A DNA stretch of 64,000 nucleotides from Candidatus Berkelbacteria bacterium (GCA_029865605.1 JAOUGE010000001.1:19840-83839), one strand, 5' to 3'. Shown: positions 637 to 37,687, counted from the stretch's first letter. Numbers and translations are program-made. Notes: generated by a model not told the origin, from the letters alone.

Positions 637-3210
637 TTGAGCACCGAAGGAGAACAAGGGCGAACTCAAGAGGAGCCTGAATCACAGGCTGTGCCTGATG
701 CTTTAAGTCCCGATAAAGCAGGAACAGGCTGGGATCTTGAGCCTGGGGCTGCCGAGCCTCTTCCTCTAGAGCCATCGCCCCGGTCAGAATCTGCCGAACC
801 CCCCGAGCCAGCTCCGCCGCCAGTACCCCCATCATCTGAAGAAGATGAGGATATAGATATCCCGGCATTTTTGCGCAGACCTGCTGAATCACCGGCCGCC
901 CTCCCCGAGTCCGACGAGGCCGTTCAGCCGTCTTTGTCATCTACCGGTCCTCCCACCCCACCGGCACTACCCAGTCCGCCGTCAAGGGAGCTAACACCAG
1001 ATGAAGCGGGGGAGCTAGATGAAATAATTGCTCGGGAGCTTGAAAGGGTGGAAAAAGATTTCGGCCGCGATTTGACGGTTGCGGAAGTGGAGGTAATTGT
1101 TGCCAATGTTATTAGATCCAAGCCCGAGTTCGGCCAGGCGCTTTCCGCCGTTGACCAGACGACGGCAGATATTTATTCCCATTATGAGAGGATTACCAAA
1201 TCAACAAAACTGAAAAGATTTTTAAGGGGTGTCGCTTCATTTTTTGGCTATACGGCGGTTGGCGCCGCGGCGGGAATGGCGGTGCGCACCGGGGTAAGGG
1301 CAGCGATTGCCCACGCCTTTCATCTTTCGGCAACGGCTTTTAACCCGGGAGGAATGGCAGCAGGAGGGCTAGTCGGTGCGGCAATCGGTGGGTTCAGAGG
1401 AGCGCAGGCCGAGAAGAGGCGACTCCACGGCGCGGCAGCGGCGCTTAACGAGTTTAAACGGATTAAACAAGAAACTGGCCGGGACCATGCTTTGAGCTTT
1501 TTGGCTAGTGTTCTCCAGGGAGGAAGGTTTCAAGGTACCCACGAGGAACTTCTGGGGATGATCGGGGTTTTGAGAAGAGAATCGCTTTGGGGGGCAAGTG
1601 AGGCAGGCCAGCTTTGTGAGGTGCAAGATACGGTTAGAGTGGACGGGCAAGAAATGGTAGTTGACGATGCCTTGGTCGCCGGTTACCTCCAAGGGCTGGG
1701 TCCTGCCGGCGAGACGCTTTATCAGAGCTACCGCAGTAGCCCCGAAGCGAAGGCGTCGATTCGGAGAGCAATCAAGAGAGGAGCGATCAGGGGTGCGGTA
1801 ATTGGTGTCGGAGCGGGACTGGTAAGCGATTTGGTGGGTTGGTGGCTGGCAAATGTCAGGGCCGAGCAAGCCCAGGCGGCAATTGATGCGGCGGCAGCCA
1901 AGAAGCAGGCGGCTCTCCAGGGCGGCTCTGAGGAGTATTTAAAGGCTCATCATGCCGGAGAATCTTATGAATATGTTAACCGGATGGCAACCCCTACTGC
2001 TCAAGAAGCGATTTTACCGGCCGATGTCGGGCCGGACTGGCTGACAAGCCACGGCTTGTCAGCGGAACCGACTGATTTTGGCAATGCCCTAAAGCACGCT
2101 ATTTATTCAAATAACATTCAGCCGCCAGAAGGGGTAACACCGGAGCAGTTTCAGGGTTTTTTGCAGCTTTTAAACTATGTTAAGCCGGAAGTCGCCGAAC
2201 ATATGAATATTCCGCTTGAGGACGTTTCCCGCGGAGTTGAAGGGGGCGTTTATCATTTTGACCGAAGCTCGCTTGGGGCGCTGGTTGATTCGGTTTTTAA
2301 ATCCGGCGGGCAATTGGAACAGTTGAACTACGAGACGATTGCTGATGCTGACAAATTGTTAACAAATGTTTTTCCTCAAATGTTGGAACAGGGCGCCAGA
2401 CAGGCTGGCGAGGAAGCGGTTCGCCAAGCCGGTGCGGAGCAAGCGGTTCAGGCGGCTGGAGCTGCGGCCAAAACCGCCGGTGTGGAAGGCCTAAAAGAAG
2501 GAGCTCTGCACGCGGCCGGGATTGGAACCGGTGCCGCTTTGGGGGGCGCATGGGCGGCGCGCCGCGACCGTGAAGAAGGTGTTGCGGCAATTGAAGAAGC
2601 AGAGCAGGCTACCGGAGTCGCTGCGCGTAGTTCAGACGAAACCCAGCCGGAAGCTGAAACTGGTGGCTCTGGAACGGGTGAGGCTCCAGGCGAGGGCCAA
2701 CCGCCGGCGGAAGCGGCTGGTCCGACCCAGAGTGAAGAAGGCGCTGAAGCGGCTGGAGGGGAAGGGCCAACCGCACCAGAGCCAGCTCAAGAGCCAGGTG
2801 CCCCAGCGGAGCGCCCGGAGCAGCCACAGGTACAGCTTTCACCAGAAGATCAGGCCAGATTAGATGAACTTTGGACTGAGGCCGAAGAGGCGGAGAGAGA
2901 GTTTAGGGTTGTGTATGGGGGCAAAGAGGTACTGGATGCGAGGAGCGCGGTTGATTTAGTCAAAGAGGCAGAGCGTAAAGCGAAAGAGACGGGGGGAGAT
3001 AGATGGGAAGAGGAGTTCCAAGTCGTACTGGCCCAAAAGATTTTTGAGGAGAGAGTGCAAAAAAGTATCGGACCTCTTGAGGGTGAGGAGAGCGCCTCGA
3101 CTGATCGCGTCCTGGCGGAAGATTTAATTTTACTTTGGAACCGCGACAAAGATAAGATAAATAAGATAAGAGGAGAAATTTCTAAAATAACAAAAGGCAC
3201 TTTGCTTTGA
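637..3210 (+). CDS. large hypothetical protein (857 aa). Acidic Pro/Ala/Glu-rich low-complexity N- and C-terminal regions; central Gly/Ala-rich hydrophobic segments
   Basis: Long ORF with a TTG start preceded by an aagggggaaaaa RBS. Compositionally biased translation with glycine-zipper-like AxxxG/GxxxA runs. No recognisable catalytic motif. Confidence 0.5.
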   Translation: MSTEGEQGRTQEEPESQAVPDALSPDKAGTGWDLEPGAAEPLPLEPSPRSESAEPPEPAPPPVPPSSEEDEDIDIPAFLRRPAESPAALPESDEAVQPSLSSTGPPTPPALPSPPSRELTPDEAGELDEIIARELERVEKDFGRDLTVAEVEVIVANVIRSKPEFGQALSAVDQTTADIYSHYERITKSTKLKRFLRGVASFFGYTAVGAAAGMAVRTGVRAAIAHAFHLSATAFNPGGMAAGGLVGAAIGGFRGAQAEKRRLHGAAAALNEFKRIKQETGRDHALSFLASVLQGGRFQGTHEELLGMIGVLRRESLWGASEAGQLCEVQDTVRVDGQEMVVDDALVAGYLQGLGPAGETLYQSYRSSPEAKASIRRAIKRGAIRGAVIGVGAGLVSDLVGWWLANVRAEQAQAAIDAAAAKKQAALQGGSEEYLKAHHAGESYEYVNRMATPTAQEAILPADVGPDWLTSHGLSAEPTDFGNALKHAIYSNNIQPPEGVTPEQFQGFLQLLNYVKPEVAEHMNIPLEDVSRGVEGGVYHFDRSSLGALVDSVFKSGGQLEQLNYETIADADKLLTNVFPQMLEQGARQAGEEAVRQAGAEQAVQAAGAAAKTAGVEGLKEGALHAAGIGTGAALGGAWAARRDREEGVAAIEEAEQATGVAARSSDETQPEAETGGSGTGEAPGEGQPPAEAAGPTQSEEGAEAAGGEGPTAPEPAQEPGAPAERPEQPQVQLSPEDQARLDELWTEAEEAEREFRVVYGGKEVLDARSAVDLVKEAERKAKETGGDRWEEEFQVVLAQKIFEERVQKSIGPLEGEESASTDRVLAEDLILLWNRDKDKINKIRGEISKITKGTLL

Positions 3211-3225: not shown

Positions 3226-4023
3226 ATGGCTATCGGTGAATTGGAGAAAAGGATAATTGATGAACTTGGGCTAGGCAGCCTCGGGCCGCAGGAGCAGGAA
3301 GCGGCCTTGAAAATGGTTGATGAACGGCTTGAGAAAAGGTTCGTCGCCAATCTGCTCTTCGACCTGCCAGAGGATAAGAAGCGGGAACTTGAGCAAAAAG
3401 TTGAAGTGATGGAAAATCCCACCCCAGAGAGTGTTTTTGATGCTGCGATTGGCCTTCATCCCAACGCCCAAGGGGTACTTGAAAAGTCAGCTAAAGACAT
3501 AATAGATGAGATGAAAGCTTCGATGAGCAAAACCGCTCCGGCGCCGGAGGCGCCAAAGAACGAAGCTGAAACTTCTGGACAAGAACCTGGTACTTCGTCT
3601 ACCCAGCCCCAGATGTCGCCCACCGCTCAGTCGGGAGAAGGCCAAACCCAGAGCGACGGGGAGAGTTTTCCGCCAACGCCACCAACACCCACGCCGCCTT
3701 CGCCGCCAGCCGAGCCAGAGCCTGCTAAACCAAAGGATGAAACACCGCCGGTTAGTCCGCCAGAAGATGAAGGCCCTAAAGTTGGCACCCAAAGCAGTTT
3801 CGGCGCGGGCGGCTTAGCCGAGACACCGGATTACTATCAACCGGCCAGTCAAGAAATTATGCCACAGAAAGATACCAATTCTTCTGGTGATAAAGCGCCC
3901 TCTGGTGCTGCGCCAGCACCTGAAGCCCCCGAACAGCCAAGCGACGCTGCTCCCACCGCTCCCTTTAATCCTCCTCCTGCCGAAGACCCCAATGCACCCT
4001 CTACCGGAGGAGCAGCCCTCTAG
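3226..4023 (+). CDS. hypothetical acidic proline-rich protein (265 aa)
   Basis: ORF 11 nt after the previous stop with RBS aaaggaga. Structured N-terminal ~100 aa, then a PTPPSPP low-complexity tail. Confidence 0.45.
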   Translation: MAIGELEKRIIDELGLGSLGPQEQEAALKMVDERLEKRFVANLLFDLPEDKKRELEQKVEVMENPTPESVFDAAIGLHPNAQGVLEKSAKDIIDEMKASMSKTAPAPEAPKNEAETSGQEPGTSSTQPQMSPTAQSGEGQTQSDGESFPPTPPTPTPPSPPAEPEPAKPKDETPPVSPPEDEGPKVGTQSSFGAGGLAETPDYYQPASQEIMPQKDTNSSGDKAPSGAAPAPEAPEQPSDAAPTAPFNPPPAEDPNAPSTGGAAL

Positions 4024-4228
4024 ATTTTGCTGGGCGAGAAGCGCTCGGATAGTGCCGAAAGCGTATTTTTGCTATAATTAATTCAGACAGGAGGTGGCGT
4101 ACTGAGAGATTCGGAAGGAGCCAGAATGTTGTTTGGTTTGGCGCGATATGCGTCGAGCTTTAGGGTACAGATAAAGTTAAAAGCTCTGCCTGCCGGCGGG
4201 CAGGGTAAAAAATAAGAGCGAAAAGGGC

Positions 4229-4894
4229 ATGCAATATAAAGTACCACAGAACATAGACCTCGAAGACAAGATTGTCGGGCCGTTTACGATGAAGCAGTTT
4301 ATTTATGTCATCGTCGCCGGCGGGATTATTTACGCTTGGTGGAGTTATTTGAGCAATAATTACGTGGATTTTATGCCTGCTTTTCTGATTTTCGCCGTGC
4401 CGGTTGGTTTCTTGGGCTTTTGCCTGGCTTTAGTAAAGGTAAACGAACGGCCGTTTGAGTTTTTTCTTTTAAATTTATTGCGTTTTATTTTTTCGCCCAA
4501 GCGGCGGGTTTGGCAGGAAGGTTATAAAACGGAAGATGTAATCGTTGTAGACAAAACGGAGGCAGCTCAGCCAAGAGAGACTTCTCGAGACACAAGAAGT
4601 CTCGACGATCTTTCTGTAAGTCTAGAAAAACAGGCAGGAATTTTAAGGCAGCAGGAATTGACTCAAAAACCGGCGGCTGAAAAGCCCGGCTTTCTCGCTG
4701 GCGTCTTCGGTAAAAAGGGCGAGAAGAGCGAATCAACTCTAAATCTCTCGGTCAAGGATGTCAAAGAGGCGGCTCAAAAACAAAGCCAAGCCCAAACGGC
4801 ACCAAAAGTCGAAAAAACGCCGCCAGCAGCAGTTGGCCAGAGTGCTGCCCCCAAGCGAAAGTCAGGTGGCTTATTTGGATTTATGAAAAAATAG
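4229..4894 (+). CDS. PrgI/VirB3-like small membrane protein of Gram-positive-type T4SS, with an extended Lys/Ala-rich C-terminal tail
   Basis: N-terminus MQYKVPQNIDLEDKIVGPFTMKQFIYVIVAGGIIYAWW followed by a second TM helix. This pattern is typical of the PrgI family. It sits immediately upstream of a VirB4-family ATPase. Confidence 0.55.
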   Translation: MQYKVPQNIDLEDKIVGPFTMKQFIYVIVAGGIIYAWWSYLSNNYVDFMPAFLIFAVPVGFLGFCLALVKVNERPFEFFLLNLLRFIFSPKRRVWQEGYKTEDVIVVDKTEAAQPRETSRDTRSLDDLSVSLEKQAGILRQQELTQKPAAEKPGFLAGVFGKKGEKSESTLNLSVKDVKEAAQKQSQAQTAPKVEKTPPAAVGQSAAPKRKSGGLFGFMKK

Positions 4895-4909
4895 ACTTTA
4901 ATTTAAACT

Positions 4910-5641
4910 ATGCCTAAACCTAAAAATCCCACCCAACAGCACCTGCCCTTTTCCGCTATTTATGATGATGTCGTGGTGACAAAGCGCGGTCAGTTTTGTC
5001 AGGTGGTAATGGTTAACTCGGTTAACTTTGGTTTAAAAAGCGAGGAAGAGCAAAATGCAATCATTGCTCAATATCAGGGCTTTTTGAATTCTCTTTCCTT
5101 CTCGGTTGAGATTATTGTTCATTCCAAAAGGCTTGATTTGACCAATTATGTTAAGGACCTTGAGGGCAGAATTGCCCAAGAGCCAAACGAGCTTATCCGT
5201 TATCAAATCCAAGAATATGTTGATTTTATCCAAAAGCTGATCTCGGTTGCCAATATAATGGACAAGAAGTTTTTTATTGTTGTGCCCCATCTTTTGAACC
5301 CTGGCGAGCTCTCGCGCGGCGGGTTTTTCTCGTCTGTTTTCGGCTCATCTCACGTTCATCTCCAAGTTCCTCTCAAAAGATTCAAGGCGGTTAAAGATGC
5401 CTTAGGTGAAAAAACAAATACTGTTGTTTCGTCTTTAGCCTCGATGGGCATTTCCGCTCAAGTCCTTTCTACCAAACAGCTGATAGAACTGTTTTACCGC
5501 ACTTATAATCCGTCTGAGGCGATGCAGGCGAAAATGCAAGGCGAGGTGGAGGCAATCGGCGTTCAGGCGGAAAAACCAAAACAGGAGCTGCAGGCCGCCG
5601 AGCCGAAAACAACCAATGTTTCGATAAAACAAAATAAATAA
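4910..5641 (+). CDS. T4SS-associated protein resembling the N-terminal domain of VirB4/TrbE (possible split VirB4)
   Basis: LPFSAIYDDVVVTKRGQFCQVVMVNSVNFGLKSEEEQNAIIAQYQGFLNSL resembles the CagE/TrbE/VirB4 N-terminal region. Stop at 5639-5641, then 29 nt to the VirB4 ATPase ORF. Confidence 0.4.
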   Translation: MPKPKNPTQQHLPFSAIYDDVVVTKRGQFCQVVMVNSVNFGLKSEEEQNAIIAQYQGFLNSLSFSVEIIVHSKRLDLTNYVKDLEGRIAQEPNELIRYQIQEYVDFIQKLISVANIMDKKFFIVVPHLLNPGELSRGGFFSSVFGSSHVHLQVPLKRFKAVKDALGEKTNTVVSSLASMGISAQVLSTKQLIELFYRTYNPSEAMQAKMQGEVEAIGVQAEKPKQELQAAEPKTTNVSIKQNK

Positions 5642-5670: not shown

Positions 5671-7788
5671 TTGACCGAAGGGAATATGCCTATTTTCCAA
5701 AACATCCAAAACAGAAAAGTGATCAAGCGCGCCGAGCAGGAGATTGAAAAATCGTCGGCGAATATGTTGGATTTCATCGCCCCGGCCAGCTTTCAGGTTA
5801 CCCCCAATAATCTGCAAATTAACGATCTTTTTGTTAAAACCCTCTTCGTTTATTCTTACCCCTCTTTTCTTAATTCAAACTGGCTTTCCCCAGTCATTAA
5901 CTATGATATTACAATGGATGTTGCTCTTCACATCGCCCCGCTTGAATCAAATCTTTTTCTGGAAAGGATGAGAAAGCAAGCGGGCAGACTCGAGTCGAGC
6001 CGTCAGATTGAACAGGAAAAAGGGTTGGTCAGAAATCCCCAGCTTGATCGGGCCATTGCCGATATTGACCAGCTTCGCGAGGATTTGGTTTCGGGACAAC
6101 AAAGGATATTTAGAGCCGCCCTCTATTTCACCCTTTATGCCAAAACCTTGCAGGAATTAAACGAGACTGCCGACCAGTTGACTTCGATGCTTGGCGGGCT
6201 TTTGGTTTATACCAAACAAAGCATATTTCAGATGGAGCAAGGCTTTCACACTAGTCTGCCTCTAGCTGAGGACGAGCTTTTGATTGCCAAGAACCTGGAC
6301 ACCAACTCGCTATCGACTACCTTTCCTTTCGTCTCGGCCGAGCTGACCTCGAGTAAAGGGGTTTTGTATGGCATCAACAGGCATAATAATTCGTTGATTA
6401 TTTTTGACCGCTTTAATCTCGAGAACGCTAATCAGGTAGTCTTTGCCAAATCCGGCGCCGGCAAGTCCTATGCCGTCAAGCTCGAGGCATTGCGCTCGCT
6501 TATGTTTGGCACCGATGTTTTGGTGGTTGATCCCGAAAACGAATATCAAGCCCTTTGCGAGTCAGTCGGGGGAAGCTTTCTTGACTTTTCTTTGAATTCG
6601 GAGAAGAGAGTTAACCCCTTTGATTTACCCAAAGCGATGGAGGGAGAAGATGGAGCTTCTGTCTTACGCTCGGCCGTAACCGACATCAAGGGTCTTTTGG
6701 CCTTGATGGTTGGAGGCGTTACGCCCGAGGAAGACGCGATTTTAGATAAAGCCGTCTATGATACCTATGCTTTGCGCGATATCACCGAAAATGCCGCTAC
6801 GCATACTAATACGCCGCCGCTTTTGACTGATCTGCAGGGAGTTTTGCAAAATACGACTGGGGCAGAAAGTTTGACAAGAAGACTTGCTAAATATACCGAG
6901 GGGACTTTTGCCGGTCTTTTTAACCAGCCGACTAATTTTGAGCTTGACCGCGGCTTCGTTGTTTTCTCAATCAGAAATCTGGAAGAGGCTTTGAGGCCTT
7001 TGGGGATGTATATGATCTTAAACTATATTTGGTCGCAGATTCGCCACAATATGAGAAAAAGGCTCTTGATTGTTGACGAGGCCTGGATTTTGATGCAGTA
7101 CCCGGATTCGGCTAGATATCTTTATTCATTGGCTAAGAGGGCCCGCAAGTATTTCTTGGGGCTAACCATTATTTCCCAGGATGTTGAGGACTTTTTAAAC
7201 AGCGAGCAGGGCCGGGCGGTTTTGAATAACTCCTCGATGCAGATTCTGCTTAAGCAGTCCCCGACAGCGGTTGAAAAGCTGGCCGAAGTTTTTCATCTGA
7301 CTGAAGGCGAAAAATTTTTGCTCTTGGAATCTGATGTCGGCGAGGGGCTGTTTTTCGCCGGCTCATCGCATGTGGCAATAAAGATTGTTGCTTCTTACGC
7401 CGAAGATCAGATAATTACGACTGACCCGCGTCAACTTTTGGCTCAAAAAGAAGCTAAGGAAAAAGAGGAGGCGATGGAGGGGCCGGAAATAAGCTCTGAC
7501 GCCATACTTGAACAAGCCCCGCCCCGAGCGGTTCCAGCCGCTCCTGCACCGGCGGCCCAGGCGATTGCGCCCCCGAAACCGGTGGCGCCAACTAGGCAAA
7601 CTGCGCCAGCAGCTCCGACCGCACCGCCCGTTCAAACCTCTAAAGCCGCTCCCCCTACCGCGGTCCCGCCGGCGCCCAAAGCCTCACCGGCTCCCCAAGC
7701 TAAGGTTACCGGCGCTCAGAATACTGCCCCTGCTCAAGGCGCAGGGGTAAGGATTCCGGTTCAGAATAAGACCGCCCTGAGAACTTAG
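5671..7788 (+). CDS. VirB4-family conjugative-transfer ATPase (TraE/PrgJ/TcpF-like), 705 aa, with a Pro/Ala-rich C-terminal tail
   Basis: Walker A FAKSGAGKSYAVK, Walker B-like LLIVDEAW, TISQDVEDF and general VirB4 architecture. Confidence 0.8.
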   Translation: MTEGNMPIFQNIQNRKVIKRAEQEIEKSSANMLDFIAPASFQVTPNNLQINDLFVKTLFVYSYPSFLNSNWLSPVINYDITMDVALHIAPLESNLFLERMRKQAGRLESSRQIEQEKGLVRNPQLDRAIADIDQLREDLVSGQQRIFRAALYFTLYAKTLQELNETADQLTSMLGGLLVYTKQSIFQMEQGFHTSLPLAEDELLIAKNLDTNSLSTTFPFVSAELTSSKGVLYGINRHNNSLIIFDRFNLENANQVVFAKSGAGKSYAVKLEALRSLMFGTDVLVVDPENEYQALCESVGGSFLDFSLNSEKRVNPFDLPKAMEGEDGASVLRSAVTDIKGLLALMVGGVTPEEDAILDKAVYDTYALRDITENAATHTNTPPLLTDLQGVLQNTTGAESLTRRLAKYTEGTFAGLFNQPTNFELDRGFVVFSIRNLEEALRPLGMYMILNYIWSQIRHNMRKRLLIVDEAWILMQYPDSARYLYSLAKRARKYFLGLTIISQDVEDFLNSEQGRAVLNNSSMQILLKQSPTAVEKLAEVFHLTEGEKFLLLESDVGEGLFFAGSSHVAIKIVASYAEDQIITTDPRQLLAQKEAKEKEEAMEGPEISSDAILEQAPPRAVPAAPAPAAQAIAPPKPVAPTRQTAPAAPTAPPVQTSKAAPPTAVPPAPKASPAPQAKVTGAQNTAPAQGAGVRIPVQNKTALRT

Positions 7789-7798: not shown

Positions 7799-9280
7799 AT
7801 GGAAGAGACCAAGAAGAATAATGCTCAAGATTTGACTCCGGTTGGCGAGATTAAAACCGGTGCTAAAATTCCTGTTGAATCGAAGCCGCAAGCTCCTTCT
7901 GCAGCGGCTCCGCCGGCGGCAAATGCCACCGGCGCCAAAGCGAGAATCGGCTCTTCTCAGATGCCGCCTGCGCCGGCAAAGGTGACGCCCACGGTTTTAG
8001 GCAGACCAGCTCCCCAAGGCCCGCCTGCTCAAGTCCCACCGCCTCCGCCCGGAGGAAAGGCGGTAATCGGCCGCCCCGGGACCGGGCCGAAGATATTTAA
8101 AATAATTGGTATCGTGGCACTGATTTTAGCCGCTGCCGCTGCCGTTTTCTTTTTCTTCTTTTATCGGGCGGTAGTTGACATTAATCCCACCCCCGCTCCC
8201 GACAAAATCCTTTTGGACGGCAAGGAAATAAAGGCAGGGATATATCGGCTCTGGCCGGGCAAGCACAAGATATCAATAGAAAAGCAAGGCTATGTTTCAT
8301 ATGAGCTTGAGAAAGATTTTTCAATTGCCGAAAAGCAAGAATTGAATTTTAAGCTCGAGGGCGAAAAGGAAACATCTCTGATTGCTTCCGGCGCGAAAAA
8401 AATCAGATCAACCAAGGATGAAAAGATATTTTATTTTCTAAGCTCCGAGGGGAGAATTTCTGCCTTTATCAAAACGGCTCCGGACAAAGCGATTATTGAA
8501 GAGCGCTCCAACGCTTCTTATCAGGGAGTCAAAGAGTATCTCGTGTCGGATAACGGAAACTTCGCCTTGATTTTGGACGCTCAGGCCCTGCGGGTTTTAG
8601 ACTTTACCAGGGTTGATTTTGTTAACCAGGTCGAAGCGGTTTTGCCGCCTCTGGCAACATCTGTCGGTTCAATTTCCTGGAATTCGGGCAGCTCAAGATA
8701 TTTTACTGAAGCAAACTCACGAATTGTTTATGATCTCAAGACAACCAGCGGTTGGGATTTAATTACCGCTGATATACGCCACTCTAAGGCTAATATCGTC
8801 ATGCAGTTTAAGGAGGGTGATTTCAGCTCTCTAAACTTAGATTGGTCGGAAAGCCAGAAAAATATTTTGCTGGTTGGGGGGCGTCTTTGTGTTTTGGACA
8901 TCGTTACTCGCCCCGAATGTTCAAAGCCGTCTGATAAGACCGATTTTATCTGGGGTAAATGGGGCCCCGCGGGTAAGTACGCCATCTTGGTTGATAAAAA
9001 TCAAAACGCTTACGCTCTTAAAGGAGATAAAGTCGAGGACCTGAAAGTCAAAACAGCTGCTAATCTCGCTTTTTGGGAAAGTGAAAGCAAGGTGATTTTG
9101 TTAAGTTCGTCTAAGCCGGTCAGGATCGATTTTGACACGGGTGAGGTGATCAACTATGCTGAAATAAAGGGTACCAAAGGTGCCAATTCTTTTGCGGTAT
9201 TGGACGGCAAGGCTTATTTTACTGATAATGAAGGATTAAAAGAAGCAATCCTGGTTAGTTCGGGAGAAGTTTATCAATAA
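7799..9280 (+). CDS. single-pass membrane protein (Pro-rich N-terminus, TM helix, beta-rich extracytoplasmic domain); possible VirB8/TcpC-like T4SS component
   Basis: TM segment IIGIVALILAAAAAVFFFFFY. Position directly after VirB4 matches PrgL/TcpC placement in Gram-positive T4SS. No diagnostic motif. Confidence 0.35.
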   Translation: MEETKKNNAQDLTPVGEIKTGAKIPVESKPQAPSAAAPPAANATGAKARIGSSQMPPAPAKVTPTVLGRPAPQGPPAQVPPPPPGGKAVIGRPGTGPKIFKIIGIVALILAAAAAVFFFFFYRAVVDINPTPAPDKILLDGKEIKAGIYRLWPGKHKISIEKQGYVSYELEKDFSIAEKQELNFKLEGEKETSLIASGAKKIRSTKDEKIFYFLSSEGRISAFIKTAPDKAIIEERSNASYQGVKEYLVSDNGNFALILDAQALRVLDFTRVDFVNQVEAVLPPLATSVGSISWNSGSSRYFTEANSRIVYDLKTTSGWDLITADIRHSKANIVMQFKEGDFSSLNLDWSESQKNILLVGGRLCVLDIVTRPECSKPSDKTDFIWGKWGPAGKYAILVDKNQNAYALKGDKVEDLKVKTAANLAFWESESKVILLSSSKPVRIDFDTGEVINYAEIKGTKGANSFAVLDGKAYFTDNEGLKEAILVSSGEVYQ

Positions 9281-9297: not shown

Positions 9298-10818
9298 ATG
9301 AAAAAAGCTCTTAGTAGGTTTCTGGGATTATTTCTCATTCTAGGCTTAGCCATAGGTCTAACCGGTTGTTCCGGGTCAAATCAGCAATCCGGCGAAAAAA
9401 TAACTCTTTATTGGTGGCGCAGCCGCGAAGATGCCAACGAGGATGTTTTACAGGAAGTCATCAAGGGCTTTGAGAGCGAAAATAAGACCGTCAAAATAGA
9501 ACTTGTCCTAAAAGATCCGAGAACTTACGAGCAGGAACTGACCGAAGCTTTAGCCGCTCATCAGACAGTTCAGGACGCTCCGGATATTATTTCGATTAAG
9601 GGCGAGGATCTGCCCAAATATGTTCCCCTGCTCACACCAGCGCCGGGCAATCTTTTTGATGCTGAAGTGAGCAAAAGTAAAAAAACCGGCGAGACAACAA
9701 CTCAATATGTTCAAGGGCTGTTTGAGGATGTTGTTATAAAGAGCGTCATTTTCAACGATGACGGCAAGCAGTTGGTTTATGGTTTGCCAATGGCGATTGA
9801 TAATTTAGCGGTCTATAAGAACAAGAAGCTTTTTTCTCAAGCCGTCGAAAGGTTAACTACAGCCAATAAAGCTGAAAAAAATCTTTCAACGACTCAAATC
9901 AAGGAAATCAAAACTTTAATTGAGGGTGATATCGACACTTGGCAGAAGCTGGTTGAAGTGGTGCCGTATTTGAAGGTTGCTGACGGGGTAAATATCAGCC
10001 AGGCGGCGATCGCCCTCGGCACATCTTTAAACGTCGAGCGCTCCTATGACATCTTACAAACAATAATGATGCAAAATGGAACTGCTATGACGAATGAAGG
10101 ATTGGATACGGCAACTTTTAACCTAAGCCAAACCGGCACCGTCGCCACCAAAACACCCGGTGAAGAGGCTTTGAAATTTTATTTAAGATTTTCAAACCCC
10201 AACGATCCTAAGGCTTATACTTGGAATGATAAAATGCCTAATTCTGTCGATGCCTTTATGCAGGGGCAAACAGCAATGATGATTCATTACGCCAGCACTT
10301 ACCGGCATATTATTAACGAAACGCCGACGATTAAGTCCTCGCTTGATGTTGTGCCGATGTTTCAACTGGCCGATCCGAAAGTGCCGACCTCTCAAGATAG
10401 GCTCAAGACCTTTGCCAGGATGTGGGTCGAGGCCGTCCCCTCGGCTAAGGGGGATCAGAAACTTCAAAACGCGGCCTGGAGCTTTGTTCACCATATTACC
10501 AGCAAAACAGGCAGCAGGCCCTACCTTCAAGCAATGAAACTTCCCTCCGCTCTGCGGGATGCCTCATCGACTGCGAAGTTTGACGTCTTTGATGATCAAA
10601 AGAAATTTTCTGATACATGGTATAAGGGCCACCGAGCATTAGAAATTGACAAGCTTTTTATTGGGATGATTGACGAGGCCTACACCGCACGCAAATCCTT
10701 AAAGGATGCTCTTGACGGAGCGGCTGCTCAAACGACGGCGGTTTTGCAAGCCAGTCGGGCTAAGTGGGCAACGGCAGCGCCTTCGGCCGCTGAAGAGGAG
10801 GCGGGAAGTGGACCCTGA
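9298..10818 (+). CDS. lipoprotein of the extracellular solute-binding protein family 1 (ABC-type SBP fold), with no permease or ATPase partner nearby
   Basis: Lipobox LAIGLTGCSG, then ITLYWWRS...KTVKIELVLKDP...APDIISIK typical of SBP_bac_1. Embedded inside the T4SS-like locus. Confidence 0.5.
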   Translation: MKKALSRFLGLFLILGLAIGLTGCSGSNQQSGEKITLYWWRSREDANEDVLQEVIKGFESENKTVKIELVLKDPRTYEQELTEALAAHQTVQDAPDIISIKGEDLPKYVPLLTPAPGNLFDAEVSKSKKTGETTTQYVQGLFEDVVIKSVIFNDDGKQLVYGLPMAIDNLAVYKNKKLFSQAVERLTTANKAEKNLSTTQIKEIKTLIEGDIDTWQKLVEVVPYLKVADGVNISQAAIALGTSLNVERSYDILQTIMMQNGTAMTNEGLDTATFNLSQTGTVATKTPGEEALKFYLRFSNPNDPKAYTWNDKMPNSVDAFMQGQTAMMIHYASTYRHIINETPTIKSSLDVVPMFQLADPKVPTSQDRLKTFARMWVEAVPSAKGDQKLQNAAWSFVHHITSKTGSRPYLQAMKLPSALRDASSTAKFDVFDDQKKFSDTWYKGHRALEIDKLFIGMIDEAYTARKSLKDALDGAAAQTTAVLQASRAKWATAAPSAAEEEAGSGP

Positions 10819-11044
10819 TGTTCAACAATTAATTGGTTTGGTTGCCCGCTGGTACTGGCAGTTGATTTTGCCGGCGGGGACGATTTTAGCCGGAGTTATG
10901 ATTGCCTACGGCGGGATAATTTATTCAACCTCCGCCGGGGAACCAACCAAGGTTGGAAAAGGTAAGGAGTTCATCTTTGGAGCAATTACAGGATTGATCC
11001 TTTTGCTCACAGCGGCCTTAATTATAAGAGCGATTATAACCTGA
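10808..11044 (+). CDS. T4SS pilin-like small membrane protein, paralog 1 (start uncertain; GTG overlapping the SBP stop)
   Basis: Two hydrophobic helices flanking IAYGGIIYSTSAGEPTKVGKGKEFIFGAITGLILL, the motif shared by the five paralogs. Confidence 0.5.
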   Translation: MDPDVQQLIGLVARWYWQLILPAGTILAGVMIAYGGIIYSTSAGEPTKVGKGKEFIFGAITGLILLLTAALIIRAIIT

Positions 11045-11388
11045 TGGAAAACCTAATTAAATTGATTTCTCAAAGAGCTTACGCTCAAGTTGGAGAGGAA
11101 ATCGACCGGCAGTTGAACCCGACGCCCTGGGTAGGGGGGGATGCCGGCGATATGATCTGGGCTCTTTTAAGCAATGTTTTAAGCCGTTTTCCTTATTTTC
11201 TGGGGGGGTTAGCTTTTGTCGCTCTTCTTTACGCCGGCGCGCTTTACATCTTCTCGACGGGAGACCCTCAAAAAATGGAAATGGCCAAAAAAAATATTGT
11301 CTGGGTTATCATCGGAGTTCTGGCGGTAGCAATGATTTATGCCGCTTTAGCGGCAGTCGCCTTTTTGGTTAGACCGAGGATAGGATAA
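11044..11388 (+). CDS. T4SS pilin-like small membrane protein, paralog 2
   Basis: LLYAGALYIFSTGDPQKMEMAKKNIVWVIIGVLAV motif; two TM helices; VirB2/TrbC-like size. Confidence 0.6.
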   Translation: MENLIKLISQRAYAQVGEEIDRQLNPTPWVGGDAGDMIWALLSNVLSRFPYFLGGLAFVALLYAGALYIFSTGDPQKMEMAKKNIVWVIIGVLAVAMIYAALAAVAFLVRPRIG

Positions 11389-11397
11389 AGGGGAAAT

Positions 11398-11790
11398 ATG
11401 TTTGGACTTGAGGGTTTTTCAGGTGCAGTCAACAGCGCGGTGGCCGGCTCTACTTCTGGTGATGATTTACCAGGGAGGTTGTACGGCGCGGTCGCTGATT
11501 GGTTCTCGGGTAATATTTTACCTCTTATCATCGGCATAGGAGTATTTGTAGCAGTTATTTTTGTTTTTTATGGTGCTTTTTTATATTTTACTGCCTACGG
11601 CGACGAGAATCGGGCGATGCTGGCTAAAAAGACGATTACCTATGCTTTTGTCGGGCTTATCATCGTCGGGCTTGCTTTTGCCATCGCCTCTTTCGTTCAA
11701 AGAGCTCTGATAAGAAACGAGGGGGGCGGGATAGAAGTTCCGACCGGTCCGCATACGGAAGATGATATAAGAAAAGAAAAGCTTTTTTAA
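11398..11790 (+). CDS. T4SS pilin-like small membrane protein, paralog 3
   Basis: VFYGAFLYFTAYGDENRAMLAKKTITYAFVGLIIV motif; two TM helices. Confidence 0.6.
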   Translation: MFGLEGFSGAVNSAVAGSTSGDDLPGRLYGAVADWFSGNILPLIIGIGVFVAVIFVFYGAFLYFTAYGDENRAMLAKKTITYAFVGLIIVGLAFAIASFVQRALIRNEGGGIEVPTGPHTEDDIRKEKLF

Positions 11791-11812
11791 CTAATATTAA
11801 TATTCATAACAT

Positions 11813-12190
11813 ATGCCGGAAATTGATTTAAAAGGAGTGATTGACAGGTTCCAGGGTTTAAGCGGGATGACCACACCGATTGTCAACCCGACCCCCCCTC
11901 CTGTTCGTGGAGGGGAAATGGAAAGCATCGGAATTAACTGGCAGAGCGTTATCAATCCGTCCGACTTCTACTACAGGCTGGTTTTGTCTTTCCTTTACGT
12001 TCTGGGGTCGATTACGGTGATTGTTTTGATATATGGCGGAATTCTTTACCTTTCTTCAGGAGGGGATGTTGAGAAAGCCGAGAGGGGAAAAAAGACGATC
12101 ATCGGAGCGATAATTGGTTTGATTGTGATTGCCGCTGCCTATGCTGGCTATAATTTTATGATTGGCGCGCTGACCGGGGGATTAACTTAG
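11813..12190 (+). CDS. T4SS pilin-like small membrane protein, paralog 4
   Basis: LIYGGILYLSSGGDVEKAERGKKTIIGAIIGLIVI motif; two TM helices. Confidence 0.6.
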   Translation: MPEIDLKGVIDRFQGLSGMTTPIVNPTPPPVRGGEMESIGINWQSVINPSDFYYRLVLSFLYVLGSITVIVLIYGGILYLSSGGDVEKAERGKKTIIGAIIGLIVIAAAYAGYNFMIGALTGGLT

Positions 12191-12195
12191 AATTT

Positions 12196-13908
12196 ATGGC
12201 AAATAACAACGAGTCGAACAGCAATAGCGAGTCGAACAGCCCGGAAACAAAACCTGGCGTTGAAACAAGAAGGGGGGAGGGTCTTGTTAAAGAGCTGCCG
12301 ATTTTGGCAACCTCGATTTTGGGGACGGCTCTTATCGCTTTGGGGATCGGCTTTTCCCAGCCCGTGGGCGAGCAGTCAAAGCTTCAATATACCGGCGATC
12401 TCTGGTGTGTCTCAAACTGGGTTGAAGAGAGGCCCTACCGTCAGCTTCCTGACGGCCGGCCGGCTAAAGATCCGAGACTGGTGGGTAAAGAAGACTGGAT
12501 TGTCCGCGAGCAGGTAGCGGCCAAAACCAAAGATGAAGCGGAAGCTAAAGCGCGAGAAAATAGCCACGGCTCTTTCGAACCCTCTGACGCTGACGCCCTG
12601 CGCGGCTATTTGGACCAAAATAATAAAGACGCTTTTACGTCGTATTTTAACACTGGCGCGACGGCTCCCGGGCCATGCATGGGGACCGGGGACACGAGTG
12701 TCCAAACCGGCAAGTGGTTGAGCGACATAATAAGAGAGATTTGCTTTGGCATAACTGGTGTGTCGGGAGAGAGAAAAGACCCTTATAACCCAACTGCTTT
12801 CACGGCCGATCAAATCAACCAATATTTGGCTCAAAAATATCCCAAGAGTCCCCTAGCGGGTCTTGGCGCCGCGTTTGTTGAAGCGGCCCAAAAAAATAAT
12901 GTGAACCCGGGCTTCTTGCTTGGTATGGCCAATGCGGAAACATCACTTGGCTCTGGACCAGCGGTTGGCAGTTATAGTCTTTTTAATATCGGCGATGTTC
13001 GCAACGCCCGCAATTATTCTAGTTTTGAAGAGTCAATATCAGACGGGGCCAAACTTTTGGGTAGCGATTCATATCGGAAATTGCAAGGTGCTCATGAAAT
13101 ACGACTCAAGTGGTGCGGGTATGAAGGGGAGTCCGAAAGTAGCGGCGCTACTATCTCTGACGGCTCGGTTATTCATTACCTTTGTGCTAACGGGAATTCG
13201 AAATGGGAAGATGAAGTCAACATAGTTCTTGATGAGATGATCGCGATGTTCCCTGACTCTGGCGCTGCTACCGATGCAACCCCTGAGCTTTTGCCAAATG
13301 CCCCAGAGTGGTGTCCGACGACACCGCCCGCGGTTGGCCCCTCTTCGGGCGAGGATTACCGGCAACAGATTGCCCAGAAGTTTGCTGAGGAGATGAATAA
13401 GAGAGGTCGCGGCGGCGCAACTTCTGGAGAAGCGCTCGGGTTTTTTGACCGGCTCTTGGCAGCGATGCCCGGTACTTTACCGCCGGCGGCAAATAATATT
13501 GTTAAAGTTGCCCAGGGGGAAATTGGCTATGCCGCCAATGACAATTGCGCCAAGTATAATGCTTATGAAATTAACGGTACGCGTTGCTGGGCCTGGTGCG
13601 CTGCTTTTGTGACTTGGGTTTATAACAAAGCGGGTTTAAACATTGAGAGATCTGGTGGAACTGTTAGGCTAATGGAGCTTTTCCAAAACGGCCACAGTTT
13701 TATTAAAACTGCCGGCGGAACAGGATACAAGCCAATGGCCGGGGACGTTTTCTGGATGAAGGCCAATAATTCCAGCGGCTATCATGTCGGGATCGTAGAG
13801 ACAGTTATTGGCAACACCGTCTTCACAATTGAGGGCAATGTAACCGGTGATGTAGTAGCGAGGAGAAGGCACGGCTTAGGTGAATTTTATGCTTTTGGGA
13901 GGTGGTAA
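12196..13908 (+). CDS. secreted cell-wall hydrolase with C-terminal CHAP domain (VirB1/PrgK/TcpG-like peptidoglycan hydrolase)
   Basis: C-terminal CWAWCAAFVTWVYNKAG ... GDVFWMKANNSSGYHVGIVETV gives the CHAP Cys and His. Central NPGFLLGMANAETSLGSG is glycosidase-like. N-terminal TM anchor. Confidence 0.7.
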   Translation: MANNNESNSNSESNSPETKPGVETRRGEGLVKELPILATSILGTALIALGIGFSQPVGEQSKLQYTGDLWCVSNWVEERPYRQLPDGRPAKDPRLVGKEDWIVREQVAAKTKDEAEAKARENSHGSFEPSDADALRGYLDQNNKDAFTSYFNTGATAPGPCMGTGDTSVQTGKWLSDIIREICFGITGVSGERKDPYNPTAFTADQINQYLAQKYPKSPLAGLGAAFVEAAQKNNVNPGFLLGMANAETSLGSGPAVGSYSLFNIGDVRNARNYSSFEESISDGAKLLGSDSYRKLQGAHEIRLKWCGYEGESESSGATISDGSVIHYLCANGNSKWEDEVNIVLDEMIAMFPDSGAATDATPELLPNAPEWCPTTPPAVGPSSGEDYRQQIAQKFAEEMNKRGRGGATSGEALGFFDRLLAAMPGTLPPAANNIVKVAQGEIGYAANDNCAKYNAYEINGTRCWAWCAAFVTWVYNKAGLNIERSGGTVRLMELFQNGHSFIKTAGGTGYKPMAGDVFWMKANNSSGYHVGIVETVIGNTVFTIEGNVTGDVVARRRHGLGEFYAFGRW

Positions 13909-14957
13909 TGGCAAATATTGGTAAAACCTTGTTTAAATTCAGATATCTGCTGATTATTTTTGCTGTTTTAATCATATTAATTGCGGTTTTGGTTTTAAAA
14001 AATAAGGGCGATCTTTCCCAGAGTACTCTTTCTAATAAAGAAGTTTCTGCACCGGTGGAAAGTTTTGCCAGAAGCAGCCTTCATTATTATTCAAGCAGTG
14101 ACGACCAAAACTTTTTTTACGGCTTTGATTCTGGTAATAAAAAGCTGGTTCAATTTAAAAGAAGCGACTTTAAACAAAATGGCCGTCAAATTTCCTTTGA
14201 GACTGTAGAGCAGGTTTACTCAAACAGCGCCTATGAAAATGTTATTATTAAGGGCTCAAGGCCAAAGGAAGAATTTCCCCGATTCTATTTTTGTGATTTT
14301 GAGCTTGGCAGCTGTCAGTCTTCGGCTTTACCTATCGGAGCGCTTTCTCTCTTACCGGCTAGCAACAAGGCGATAGCCCAGATCATTAATGAGGAAAAAG
14401 CGACCTTTGAACTCGTGGACTTGAAGTCGGAGGAATTTAAAGAACTTGCCTCAACGGATTCTTTTGAGTATAAGTTGGAATTCATTGACGATAAGACCGG
14501 CATGTTTTTTGCTGAGCCGACCGAGCCCGGGATTAATAACCCGATCTCGACCATATCTCTTGAGAACGGTCAAATAAAGACGGTTTTACGCGAGGCCAGC
14601 TCCTATCGGCTTTCGCCGCAAAGAAAATACCTGATTTTTTCCAAAGAAGCGAAAGACAAAACCCTTGTTTATTTATACGATATCGCCAAAAGCAGAGAAA
14701 CAATTCTTGAAACCAACAGTATTCACCAAGCGTTCTTTTCTCAAGATGAGAGCAAAATTTATATCGTCGAAATTTTACCTGATGAACAAAAAGCAAAACT
14801 CCTTTTTTATTCCATGGGGAATGTCTCGGCCGAACCGACACTTATCAAAGAATATGCCTTTGGCAAAGATGACGAACTGACAGATGTGATTTGGCTTCGC
14901 GGTAGCGAATATCTTCTTTTAACTAAAGACGGTCTGGAGATGAGAATCGCTCTTTAA
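13902..14957 (+). CDS. N-terminally anchored hypothetical protein (351 aa)
   Basis: ORF overlaps the previous stop by 7 nt. TM helix LLIIFAVLIILIAVLVL. No recognisable motif. Confidence 0.4.
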   Translation: MVMANIGKTLFKFRYLLIIFAVLIILIAVLVLKNKGDLSQSTLSNKEVSAPVESFARSSLHYYSSSDDQNFFYGFDSGNKKLVQFKRSDFKQNGRQISFETVEQVYSNSAYENVIIKGSRPKEEFPRFYFCDFELGSCQSSALPIGALSLLPASNKAIAQIINEEKATFELVDLKSEEFKELASTDSFEYKLEFIDDKTGMFFAEPTEPGINNPISTISLENGQIKTVLREASSYRLSPQRKYLIFSKEAKDKTLVYLYDIAKSRETILETNSIHQAFFSQDESKIYIVEILPDEQKAKLLFYSMGNVSAEPTLIKEYAFGKDDELTDVIWLRGSEYLLLTKDGLEMRIAL

Positions 14958-15059
14958 CATATGTATTTGACTGGTTTTAAAAATACGGCTATTGTATAGA
15001 CAAGCGAAAAATAGTATTTTAGTAAGTAGTTATTTATATTAATATTAGGGAGGGAGAAA

Positions 15060-15428
15060 ATGAAAGCTCTAGATAAAGTTCTATCGGTAGGCGGAAAAAT
15101 TGCTGGCGTGGTTGCTCTGTCATCAATTTATGGTCCGGTGGCGCATGCGCAAATAACGCAAGGCCCGATTGAAGGGATTAGCCTTTATGGGGGGTCGCTG
15201 GGCGAATTGATCGATATTATTATCCAGGTCGTACTATGGGGCGCTGGGGCTATTGCTTTTGCTTATCTTATTTATGGCGGTATCTCGTATATCACCGCCG
15301 GCGGCGATGCGGAAAAAGCGGGTAAAGGCCGAACGGCAATCCTTAACGCGGTGATTGGTATAATCGTTGTTTCGGCTGCATTAGCTATTTACAAATTTGT
15401 TTTACAGGGCGTAGCCGGCGACCTCTAG
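15060..15428 (+). CDS. T4SS pilin-like small membrane protein, paralog 5
   Basis: LIYGGISYITAGGDAEKAGKGRTAILNAVIGIIVV motif. Strong RBS gggagggagaaaATG and a TTGACT/TATTGT promoter-like upstream region. Confidence 0.6.
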   Translation: MKALDKVLSVGGKIAGVVALSSIYGPVAHAQITQGPIEGISLYGGSLGELIDIIIQVVLWGAGAIAFAYLIYGGISYITAGGDAEKAGKGRTAILNAVIGIIVVSAALAIYKFVLQGVAGDL

Positions 15429-15449: not shown

Positions 15450-16994
15450 TCATTCACTGGTGACTCGCCTTACCTCTTTTTCGGTAGTGATGCCAAGGCG
15501 GACTTTTTCTATTCCGTCTTGAAACATTGTCACCATTCCGTCGGCTCTGGCGGCTTGTTCAAACTCGACAATCGTGCCCTTTTTCTGGATCAACTCCTCG
15601 ATTTTGGGGGTAATTTTCATTGTCTCGATAATGGCAATCCTGCCTTTATAGCCAGTGCCTTTGCAAGTTGAGCACGGGGTTTGGCCCTGAGAGCCAGTCC
15701 CTCTGCAGGTTTTGCAGATCATTCTAACTAGTCTTTGGGCGATGATTAAGTTGATTGAACCGGACAGAAGAAACGGCTTAACTCCTATGTCCAAAAGCCG
15801 CGGGATAGATGAAGGAGCGGAATTGGTGTGGAGAGTCGTCAAAACCAAATGGCCGGTCAAAGAAGCTTGAAGGGCTGTTTCGGCCGTTTCTTTATCTCTG
15901 ATTTCGCCGACCATAATGATATCCGGGTCTTGGCGCAAGGCGTGCTTTAAACCGATGGCAAAGTCATAGCCTTTGCTTGGATTGACTTGGCTTTGATCGA
16001 TTCCCTCGATTCGGTATTCAATTGGATCTTCAAGGGTGATTATTTTGACTTCCGATTTATTTAGCTTTTGCAAAATAGCATATAAAGTAGTCGTTTTTCC
16101 CGAACCGGTCGGGCCAGTGTTGAAGATAGCGCCGTTTGGCTTTGAAATCGCCTCCTCGATCGCTTGCATGGCGTCTTCGCGGAAACCTAGCTTCTCGAGT
16201 GTTATTAAAGCCCCTGAAGGATTTAAAAGCCGGCAAACGATTACCTCGCCCCAAGCTCCGGGGATAAGCGAAACCCTAACATCTATATTTTGGGCGGCGA
16301 TTTGAATTTCAAAGCGGCCGTCTTGGGGGATTTCAGTTACATTGAGCTTCAATTTTGAAAGATATTTGATGCGATTTCTGATTGCTTTGTAGGTTTCCGG
16401 CGGCAGTTTGGCGACATCTTGAAGCATCCCGTCGAGGCGGTAGCGCAGCCTTGCGCCGTCTTCAGCTGGTTCGATATGAATGTCTGAGGCGTCAAGATGA
16501 ACCGCTCCGGCAAAAACAATATCAAGAATTTCTGTTGTTTCGGTTTGGGTAATCTTGTTGCCGATTGATTTGAGGTCCTGTGCTCCGCCAAATTTAGCCT
16601 TGATGTATTCATCGGAGACGATATGTCTCTCAAGCGTTCGGGGCTTCTCCTTGACGAACTCAAGCTGGGCCAGGCCGTATCTCAATGAACTTTCCGAGCA
16701 GAGATAGAGGTGAAATTTGTAATTGGTGGATACGGAGAGCTCCCTCAAAAACGGCACCAGACGAGGGTCTTCCGGCTTTGAAGCCGCTACCTTGACTTGG
16801 TCGTTTAAGCGATAAAAAGGAATAACGCCATGCTCTCTGGCCTGCTCTTTGGGGATGATAGAGAGTACTTCTGGAGTGAAAGGATAGCCGACCAAATTAA
16901 CATAAGGTACGCCGACCTTGGCTGACTTTTCGCGAGTCGCTTTCTCCTCCCCTTCGCGAGAGAATATTTTGAGGGCTTTGTCGATATCGGGCAT
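15450..16994 (-). CDS. GspE/PilB/VirB11-superfamily secretion ATPase (514 aa) with N-terminal GspE_N-like domain and C-terminal tetracysteine motif
   Basis: Walker A GPTGSGKTTTLYA, Walker B DPDIIMVGEIRD, His box TLHTNSA, CKTCRGTG...CSTCKGTG zinc motif. Confidence 0.8.
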   Translation of the reverse strand: MPDIDKALKIFSREGEEKATREKSAKVGVPYVNLVGYPFTPEVLSIIPKEQAREHGVIPFYRLNDQVKVAASKPEDPRLVPFLRELSVSTNYKFHLYLCSESSLRYGLAQLEFVKEKPRTLERHIVSDEYIKAKFGGAQDLKSIGNKITQTETTEILDIVFAGAVHLDASDIHIEPAEDGARLRYRLDGMLQDVAKLPPETYKAIRNRIKYLSKLKLNVTEIPQDGRFEIQIAAQNIDVRVSLIPGAWGEVIVCRLLNPSGALITLEKLGFREDAMQAIEEAISKPNGAIFNTGPTGSGKTTTLYAILQKLNKSEVKIITLEDPIEYRIEGIDQSQVNPSKGYDFAIGLKHALRQDPDIIMVGEIRDKETAETALQASLTGHLVLTTLHTNSAPSSIPRLLDIGVKPFLLSGSINLIIAQRLVRMICKTCRGTGSQGQTPCSTCKGTGYKGRIAIIETMKITPKIEELIQKKGTIVEFEQAARADGMVTMFQDGIEKVRLGITTEKEVRRVTSE

Positions 16995-36183: not shown

Positions 36184-36330
36184 TTCGTTCACCCCCGATC
36201 TTAATTTAGCTTGTATTATGAATATATATGCAAAATGGGGATTTGTCAAGAGGGTACTTCTCGCAGACGTTAGAAATGACATATTGGAGAAATTGTTTGA
36301 GAAATTGCTCAAACCTGTTAGGATTACCTT

Positions 36331-36906: not shown

Positions 36907-36918
36907 ACCTGATATTAT

Positions 36919-37626: not shown

Positions 37627-37687
37627 AGTCAGCGATACCCACGGGCGGGAAAGGGGGCCGCCCGATGTATTTATAAAAAGGATTGAA

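Follow-up and report, generated by a model that had tools for sequence, protein, structure and literature searches.

A 64,000-nt stretch of a Candidatus Berkelbacteria bacterium genome (below, the window, within which all coordinates are 1-based) carries five paralogous genes for small two-helix membrane proteins, P1–P5, which we assign, with a probability of roughly 80%, to the VirB2-like pilin subunits of a Patescibacteria type IV secretion system (T4SS); we are less confident of how they are assembled than of this identity. The five open reading frames (ORFs) are present on the plus strand at the starts given in an earlier note on this DNA (10808, 11044, 11398, 11813 and 15060), and their products all exceed the curated gathering threshold of the Pfam family T4SS_pilin (PF18895, 26.6 bits), scoring 32–40 bits with E values of 1e-7 to 3e-10:

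10808..11044, + strand: pilin P1, 78 amino acids (aa), a VirB2-like hairpin without a leader (PF18895, 32.1 bits)
11044..11388, + strand: pilin P2, 114 aa, with a short leader ending RAYA↓Q (PF18895, 40.0 bits)
11398..11790, + strand: pilin P3, 130 aa, without a signal peptide, with a hydrophilic N-terminal extension and a C-terminal tail (PF18895, 34.9 bits)
11813..12190, + strand: pilin P4, 125 aa, or alternatively 90 aa from M36 (11918) (PF18895, 40.5 bits)
15060..15428, + strand: pilin P5, 122 aa, with a Sec signal peptide and an AHA↓Q site, the candidate major subunit (PF18895, 32.3 bits)

The length of ~115–130 aa previously ascribed to all five holds for P3, P4 and P5, with P2 at 114 aa, and fails for P1. 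Each pilin contains a ~75-residue two-helix membrane hairpin with a short basic turn, GGD-x-EK-x-x-GK[KR]. Hydropathy and AlphaFold2 models (built on an alignment of 94–95 sequences) concur on two hydrophobic helices and a short turn: in the P5 model (predicted local distance difference test score, pLDDT, 82) a signal helix at residues 2–23 is followed by hairpin helices at 47–79 and 84–121, and in the P1 model (pLDDT 94.9) the helices span residues 3–41 and 46–77. The shared core, consisting of a hydrophobic helix, the turn (Y)GG-x-x-Y-x-[ST]-x-G-[DE]-x-x-K-x-x-x-[GA]-K-[KR] and a second hydrophobic helix, does exist, but it is looser than the conserved Y-G-G core first described: pairwise identity among P1–P5 is 29–35%, eight columns are invariant, and Y-G-G is replaced by Y-A-G in P2 and by Y-G-A in P3 (conserved core YGAFLYFTAYGDENKA).

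A family hidden Markov model (HMM) run over every ORF of the window returned the five pilins, with the best score (131 bits) for P5, and one false positive, a 410-aa protein at 44544–45776 (+) that was rejected as a MacB/FtsX permease by its Pfam assignment. A transmembrane helix of this permease (ISLIVGGIGISS; also in PDB 5gko) mimics the YGGI motif of the pilins at a local E of 1e-5, which calls for caution with automated "pilin" counts; because of this false positive, pilin-HMM hits longer than 270 aa were left out of array counts in related loci. Identical proteins are on record for a metagenome-assembled genome of Candidatus Berkelbacteria (tags OEV37_00165 and OEV37_00180), where NCBI already gives P2 and P3 the name "pilin". 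The PF18895-type family comprises 96,715 cluster representatives at E ≤0.001, and many of its members (P0241–P0390; P0013, P0018 and P0020) carry 2–17 tandem hairpins in one polypeptide of up to 1,775 aa, an arrangement that one would hardly expect of a pilus subunit and that the T4SS papers do not take up.

Several comparisons support placing the family with VirB2/TrbC-type rather than type IV pilus pilins, as had been proposed. All 94 aligned family members match PF18895; 48 of the 94 also touch the Pfam TrbC/VirB2 family PF04956 at E ≤1 (best 2.8e-5) and four touch CagC, with no PF04956 match by any of the five window pilins on its own. An hhalign comparison of the pilin family with nine VirB2 sequences of mating-pair formation class T (MPF_T), namely Agrobacterium VirB2 (100% identical to annotated virB2 genes) and eight diverse TrbC/VirB2 proteins of conjugative plasmids, gave a probability of 69.5%, E 4e-5 and a score of 33.6 over 101 columns (vs. 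8–15 for reversed and 30 column-shuffled controls), and it registers the AxA↓Q leader cleavage site as well as both helices of the two families. Like the VirB2/TrbC proteins of MPF_T and MPF_P systems (PF04956; e.g., Agrobacterium VirB2), the present family combines an A-x-A↓Q leader with two hydrophobic helices, a short turn and a similar length; unlike them, it shows marginal sequence similarity, belongs to a monoderm host without VirB5, VirB7, VirB9, VirB10 or VirB11, and includes leaderless paralogues. The class III (prepilin) leader pattern, whose absence the earlier note had reported for the five proteins, was missing in a pattern search from these five as well as from 38 positional orthologues and 120 homologues.

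The closest named NCBIfam family of all five pilins is the pilin-like conjugal transfer protein of Mycoplasma integrative and conjugative elements (ICEs; Mbov_0395 family, NF045849), matched by P1–P5 and by 94 of the 94 aligned family members (best E 1e-17). P1–P5 score 17.5–28.6 bits against this model, under its cut-off of 40, and are thus relatives rather than members. The likeness extends to the TrsD-like protein encoded near the pilins, which best matches the N-terminal region of the ICE VirB4 model (NF045975); unlike the window system, which is chromosomal, the Mycoplasma ICE is a mobile conjugative element with relaxase-type transfer. These matches suggest that pilin-like subunits do occur in a monoderm MPF_FATA lineage, contrary to its assumed lack of VirB2 homologues.

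The five genes keep their places in related genomes. The order PrgI, TrsD, VirB4, PEGA protein, lipoprotein, p1–p4 and hydrolase is shared by five loci (L001, L002, L003, L005 and L006), and p5 with a convergent PilB gene follows the hydrolase in these five and in L089 and L095; two further loci with close VirB4 genes (L007 and L008) have the same order, with only the four-pilin array found. Pilins at the same position are 35–46% identical across genomes vs. 19–28% between different positions, so that the five pilin types would be older than the lineages that carry them. Judged by these identities, the five genes are old positional orthologue groups whose 4+1 order is kept in relatives, and not recent copies. 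The groups evolve much faster than VirB4, which is 75–82% identical across the same genomes. The p5 group, with a mean identity of 46%, is among the two most conserved, and the sequence of P5 lies near the family consensus.

The N-termini diverge by paralogue, as had been noted, and to judge from the translations they fall into Sec-type, short and absent leaders. P1 begins with GTG at 10808, and a GAGGAGG Shine-Dalgarno sequence precedes this start by seven bases; its orthologues bear a Sec signal peptide, which is absent both from P1 and from an 81%-identical relative (P0042). A frameshift masking the P1 signal peptide was considered and dropped, since no frame encodes one. The upstream part of the P1 ORF (10706–11044) is basic and non-hydrophobic and overlaps the end of the lipoprotein gene, and P1 is sourced only from JGI in the match list, so that NCBI may not have called the gene. 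The ATG of P2 overlaps the P1 stop codon (TGATG), and its short leader with the AYA↓Q site corresponds in orthologues either to a full Sec signal peptide or to the same (R/K)A(Y/H)A leader. The p3 orthologues uniformly lack a signal peptide and end in a variable, hydrophilic C-terminal tail, and p4 orthologues never have a signal peptide and carry a hydrophilic extension. For P4, the NCBI call is the 90-aa form from M36, the only start preceded by a Shine-Dalgarno sequence (GGAGGGG); the N-terminal 35 residues are conserved in P0005, P0006 and P0009 and in the positional orthologues, which lack Met at M36, and because orthologues conserve this longer N-terminus the 125-aa form is probably made. 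Every p5 orthologue has a Sec signal peptide with an AxA site, and P5 is preceded by a promoter-like site, TTGACT-17-TATTGT, and by the ribosome-binding site GGGAGGGAG.

Since position-specific leaders and tails are kept in order, the array points to fixed, distinct subunit types, with presumably distinct roles, rather than interchangeable variants. From its conservation, its closeness to the family consensus, its own promoter-like site and its strong ribosome-binding site, we infer that P5 is the candidate major subunit and that P1–P4 are minor or specialised ones.

The remaining features of the pilin locus are as follows:

4229..4894, + strand: PrgI/VirB3-like protein (PF12666 PrgI, E 2.6e-13), kept 5' of VirB4 in related loci
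4910..5641, + strand: TrsD-like protein, a homologue of the VirB4 N-terminal domain (NCBIfam TrsD NF041427, E 4e-11; N-terminal region of VirB4_plasma NF045975, E 1e-11; both under cut-off)
5671..7788, + strand: VirB4 ATPase (PF19044 P-loop_TraG, 93 bits; AAA_10; DUF87)
7799..9280, + strand: single-pass membrane protein with a weak PEGA domain (E 0.024) and one transmembrane segment at residues 102–120
9298..10818, + strand: stand-alone lipoprotein of a solute-binding family, the first gene of the pilin array (SBP_bac_8, 62.7 bits; SBP_bac_1, 40.2 bits; lipobox LTGC in the translation)
12196..13908, + strand: cell-wall hydrolase with glucosaminidase and CHAP domains and a VirB1-like role (PF05257 CHAP, 37.5 bits; PF01832, 27.7 bits, just under cut-off)
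13902..14957, + strand: single-pass membrane protein of unknown function, with one N-terminal transmembrane segment and no family match
15450..16994, − strand: stand-alone PilB-type ATPase, convergent with P5 (T2SSE, 397 bits; MshEN, 39 bits; TIGR02538, 467.6 bits)

The genes from PrgI through TrsD-like protein, VirB4, PEGA protein, lipoprotein, P1–P4 and hydrolase to the unknown gene are co-directional, with gaps or overlaps of no more than 30 nt (11 nt of overlap between the lipoprotein gene and P1); P5 is set off from this string by a 102-nt AT-rich spacer, and 21 nt separate its stop codon from that of PilB. PrgI, the TrsD-like protein and VirB4 are encoded together here and in the related loci examined. 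Orthologues of the TrsD-like protein match PF26593 (TraC-like), and VirB4 has 215 relatives among genome contigs, almost all of them from Patescibacteria. The match to the PEGA domain is weak in orthologues too, while the position of its gene 3' of VirB4 is kept, as is the place of the hydrolase gene between p4 and p5. On the minus strand, PilB is preceded by the usual origin-proximal set, namely a small gene of unknown function, a gene with an HD domain, tRNA-Ser, yidC and rnpA, the last two at 18.6–20 kb of the window; the T4SS locus is chromosomal and origin-proximal.

The earlier note had set the pilins against their ATPase neighbour as an unusual pairing, having overlooked VirB4 at 5671–7788. 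The adjacency to PilB is indeed conserved, in all related loci where it could be tested, but a PilB standing in for the T4SS ATPase is not called for: VirB4 lies 3 kb 5' of the pilins, and the secretion system therefore has a normal motor. To our knowledge, monoderm-type T4SSs normally lack VirB11. Among the ~65 window ORFs scanned, there was no relaxase, no coupling protein (VirD4/TcpA) and no PilC, PilM, PilT or PilD, and the window contains no peptidase A24 gene; PilB was the only type IV pilus gene identified.

The main T4SS locus likewise has no VirB6-like multi-pass protein. A second group of possible T4SS membrane genes, including small unknown ones, occupies 47704–56746 (−), ~35 kb from VirB4. 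It encodes a 972-aa protein (49184–52102, −) with six predicted transmembrane segments and a TrbL/VirB6 score of 23.7 bits, below the cut-off of 25.9, and an adjoining 910-aa multi-pass protein; the two resemble a pair of ~1000-aa VirB6-like proteins of the Southlakia epibionticum T4SS cluster. At the other end of the window, a stretch of 55–58% G+C (vs. mostly 42–50% in the window) includes a gene at 637–3210 (+) whose acidic product of 857 aa is rich in Pro, Ala, Glu and Gly and matches no family. In the L005 and Kazan loci, this place is taken by a gene for 900–980 aa; in the window, a weak DUF5663 protein (3226–4023, +) is encoded directly after the 857-aa protein and before PrgI. A second stretch of raised G+C (52–57%, 36000–44000) holds several ORFs without a family match and a YchF GTPase gene.

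Pilin arrays of Patescibacteria are already published, and the present locus adds no new kind of element to them. In the T4SS cluster of S. epibionticum, which likewise lacks relaxase and coupling proteins, the predicted pilin series is essential (Wang 2023, Cell, PMC10633639), and a PEGA protein belongs to this essential cluster (PMC10633639). A survey of 3,035 Patescibacteria genomes with PF18895 among its profiles found pilins near virB4 in 1,135 assemblies (Quinonero-Coronel 2025, Microb Genom, PMC12102498) and described 441 arrays of 2–11 VirB2-like genes, with a mean identity of 25% and often near dnaA, rnpA and rpmH (PMC12102498). According to a 2025 review, the Patescibacteria hold the only VirB2-like pilins in monoderm systems. 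The window array agrees with these arrays in its PF18895 matches, its divergent paralogues, its VirB4, TrsD, PrgI, PEGA and wall hydrolase partners, its chromosomal position near rnpA, yidC and dnaA and the absence of a relaxase or coupling protein nearby. It differs from them in coming from Berkelbacteria, in being split 4+1 by the hydrolase gene, and in having a lipoprotein gene before it and PilB facing it, neither of which adjoins the S. epibionticum array. New with respect to these papers are the positional orthologue groups with their 4+1 order, the differing leaders, and the module of lipoprotein, pilins and PilB.

In the mechanism that we propose, the hairpins would insert in the cytoplasmic membrane so that the basic turn faces the cytoplasm and both termini face the exterior, and the leaders, where present, would be cut by signal peptidase I. 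VirB4, together with TrsD and PrgI/VirB3, would then extract the subunits and polymerise them into a pilus or a short conduit, for which the array-embedded glucosaminidase/CHAP hydrolase would open the cell wall. P5 may form the bulk of the structure, with P1–P4, presumably co-transcribed with VirB4, in specialised or minor positions. Because the window encodes no relaxase or coupling protein and the S. epibionticum homologue is essential for epibiotic growth, the structure would probably serve host-cell contact or exchange rather than conjugation.

A number of observations weigh against this assignment or against parts of it. The hhalign probability is only ~70%. The structural comparison with conjugative pilins, to which the earlier note had looked, returned plain hairpins: Foldseek searches of PDB with both AlphaFold2 models gave generic helical hairpins as best matches (E 0.27 and 0.33), with no VirB2/TraA chain in the top 50, and the best structural match was ATP synthase subunit c (E 0.33). 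We take this outcome to be uninformative, not negative. An ATP synthase c domain was also the fold that Wang et al. assigned to at least one pilin of their array (PMC10633639). When PDB sequences were searched with a profile, chance matches alone came up (MacB and CD20). The label "pilin" of PF18895 proteins is itself based on homology and context, and the role of P5 as major subunit is our inference only. The leaderless P3 and P4 would need 40–55 hydrophilic residues to be moved across the membrane. Lastly, among 80 metagenome loci collected via the P5-type motif, a convergent PilB was found in 28 of the 39 loci with room for it and VirB4 within 6–9 kb upstream in only 3 of 15 with room; since arrays adjoin PilB more often than VirB4, VirB4-driven assembly is not implied by neighbourhood alone.

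This last point bears on the best surviving alternative, in which the array belongs to a three-part module of lipoprotein, VirB2-like pilins and stand-alone PilB, where PilB would assemble or retract the filament, serving either as its main motor or in a VirB11-like capacity alongside VirB4. PilB shares an ATPase superfamily with VirB11. The window protein is on the PilB side of it, as the earlier note had recognised (T2SSE and MshEN domains; 467 bits for TIGR02538 vs. 44 bits for VirB11), although its TIGR02538 score is under the equivalog cut-off of 675. Its translation contains the MshEN N-domain, the T2SSE core, Walker A, Walker B, the His box and the four-cysteine motif that it shares with PilB/GspE proteins (TIGR02538, TIGR02533); unlike them, it stands alone, its conserved neighbours being T4SS pilins or VirB4. 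Context counts were made over all fetched loci, whose lineages (Berkelbacteria, Kazan and relatives) were partly picked via pilins. Of 56 full-length PilB-like genes, 43 have a PF18895 pilin facing them within 2.5 kb, in many cases with a gap of <100 nt or even an overlap, 11 are in a VirB4 operon, and the remaining two are too near a contig end to judge. When loci were sampled with PilB as the seed (53–74% identity), all four testable ones faced pilin arrays, two of them without VirB4 within 10 kb; L091 and L093, which lack VirB4 within this distance, retain lipoprotein, pilins and PilB. Pilin-facing PilB proteins fall to 39% identity and form seven clusters at 70% identity, and the far side of PilB varies: it is occupied by yidC, rnpA and dnaA in most loci, and by heliorhodopsin, purine or sugar-nucleotide genes in L116, L119 and L108. 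In the Kazan lineage, PilB is inside the VirB4 operon (order PrgI, TrsD, VirB4, one unknown gene, PilB; gaps of 3–4 nt). The loci behind these PilB contexts, pilin-facing and Kazan-type together, are L015, L017, L020–L026, L032, L033, L089–L093 and L098–L177. None of the fetched PilB loci has PilC, PilM or PilT beside PilB.

The lipoprotein is the third member of the proposed module. A solute-binding-family gene starts 25 of the 28 metagenome arrays of at least three pilins with room for it, and the lipoprotein family also directly precedes arrays in L091, L093 (twice), L095 and L096, including a Kerfeldbacteria genome. No ATP-binding cassette permease or ATPase gene adjoins the stand-alone lipoprotein gene of the window (9298–10818). 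We found no mention of PilB or of a solute-binding lipoprotein in the 2023 and 2025 Patescibacteria T4SS papers, and their combination with the pilin array seems not to have been described before in the literature searched.

Against this module stand (i) the phylogenetically narrow sample, partly chosen through the pilins themselves; (ii) the convergent orientation, which in the Berkelbacteria type rules out co-transcription of PilB with P5; (iii) the origin-proximal position of most loci, where gene order is unusually stable; (iv) the arrays of L094, L096 and L097, which have no PilB nearby, and S. epibionticum, where the PilB genes adjoin PilT/PilC and Hsp20, not PilB, follows the pilin array (PMC10633639); and (v) the character of the window ATPase as a typical PilB/GspE with MshEN and zinc-finger motifs, a type that normally depends on class III pilins and on PilC as a platform. 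We therefore treat the three-part module as a tentative alternative, and a functional link between PilB and the pilins as possible though doubtful. Its more specific version, a hybrid T4SS/type IV pilus module in Berkelbacteria, Kazan and related Patescibacteria, with PilB as a VirB11-like or extension motor and the lipoprotein as a receptor or cargo binder for host contact or uptake, is rather speculative.

Other observations made around PilB concern its neighbours and its more distant homologues. In L116, a heliorhodopsin gene (4137–4901, −; PF18761, 351 bits) lies 1.3 kb from the PilB–pilin pair. The protein u122, encoded upstream of PilB, was considered as a prepilin and rejected as a soluble basic protein. 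Long PilB homologues of the candidate phyla radiation (P0180–P0189, P0201 and P0221; L178 and L179), of 700–890 aa, have a T2SSE domain split in two, which suggests a possible insertion such as an intein.

Less probable, and in our view unlikely, is a reading of the five proteins as membrane-resident parts of a secretion channel, or as anchors displaying variable N- and C-terminal tails, with no extended pilus. Monoderm T4SSs are generally without a pilus (PMC12102498, PMC12857230), variation in the family affects the extracellular tails and spares the hairpin, and the protein matched best in structure, ATP synthase c, is a subunit of a membrane ring; chains of 2–17 fused hairpins are, in addition, hard to square with a simple helical pilus subunit. 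On the other hand, the likeness to VirB2 extends over the entire architecture and takes in the leader cleavage site, the array encloses a gene for a wall hydrolase, and five conserved paralogues recall sets of major and minor pilins.

Variation through VirB2 paralogues has been proposed for Bartonella and Anaplasma. An analogous role of the window array as a cassette of interchangeable versions of one pilin, varying antigen or host range, would fit the low identity of the paralogues (29–35%) and has been suggested for Patescibacteria (PMC12102498). We nevertheless consider it very unlikely, as each position has its own orthologue group, leader type and tail, the order is kept where VirB4 is 75–82% identical, and each of the S. 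epibionticum pilin genes 0014 and 0016–0019 is marked essential in the transposon insertion sequencing (Tn-seq) table (PMC10633639). Finally, an identity as type IV pilus pilins with class III signal peptides, assembled by the adjacent PilB, has nothing but that adjacency in its favour and is refuted by the sequences, with their lack of a G↓F-x-x-x-E leader in orthologues and homologues alike, their two-helix hairpin in place of one N-terminal helix with a globular head, and their Pfam and NCBIfam matches to T4SS pilin families.

Overall, the locus is of interest because the one Patescibacterium that is genetically tractable cannot lead its epibiotic life without the homologous T4SS and pilin array. 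The Patescibacteria arrays are the only reported VirB2-like pilins in a monoderm secretion system, and the relatives found in Mycoplasma ICEs, which belong to the same monoderm T4SS class, bear on whether such pilins have been acquired from Gram-negative systems. Across one large lineage, moreover, the array is accompanied by a solute-binding lipoprotein and a PilB-type ATPase, an association which, if functional, would represent an unexpected mix of secretion and pilus machinery.

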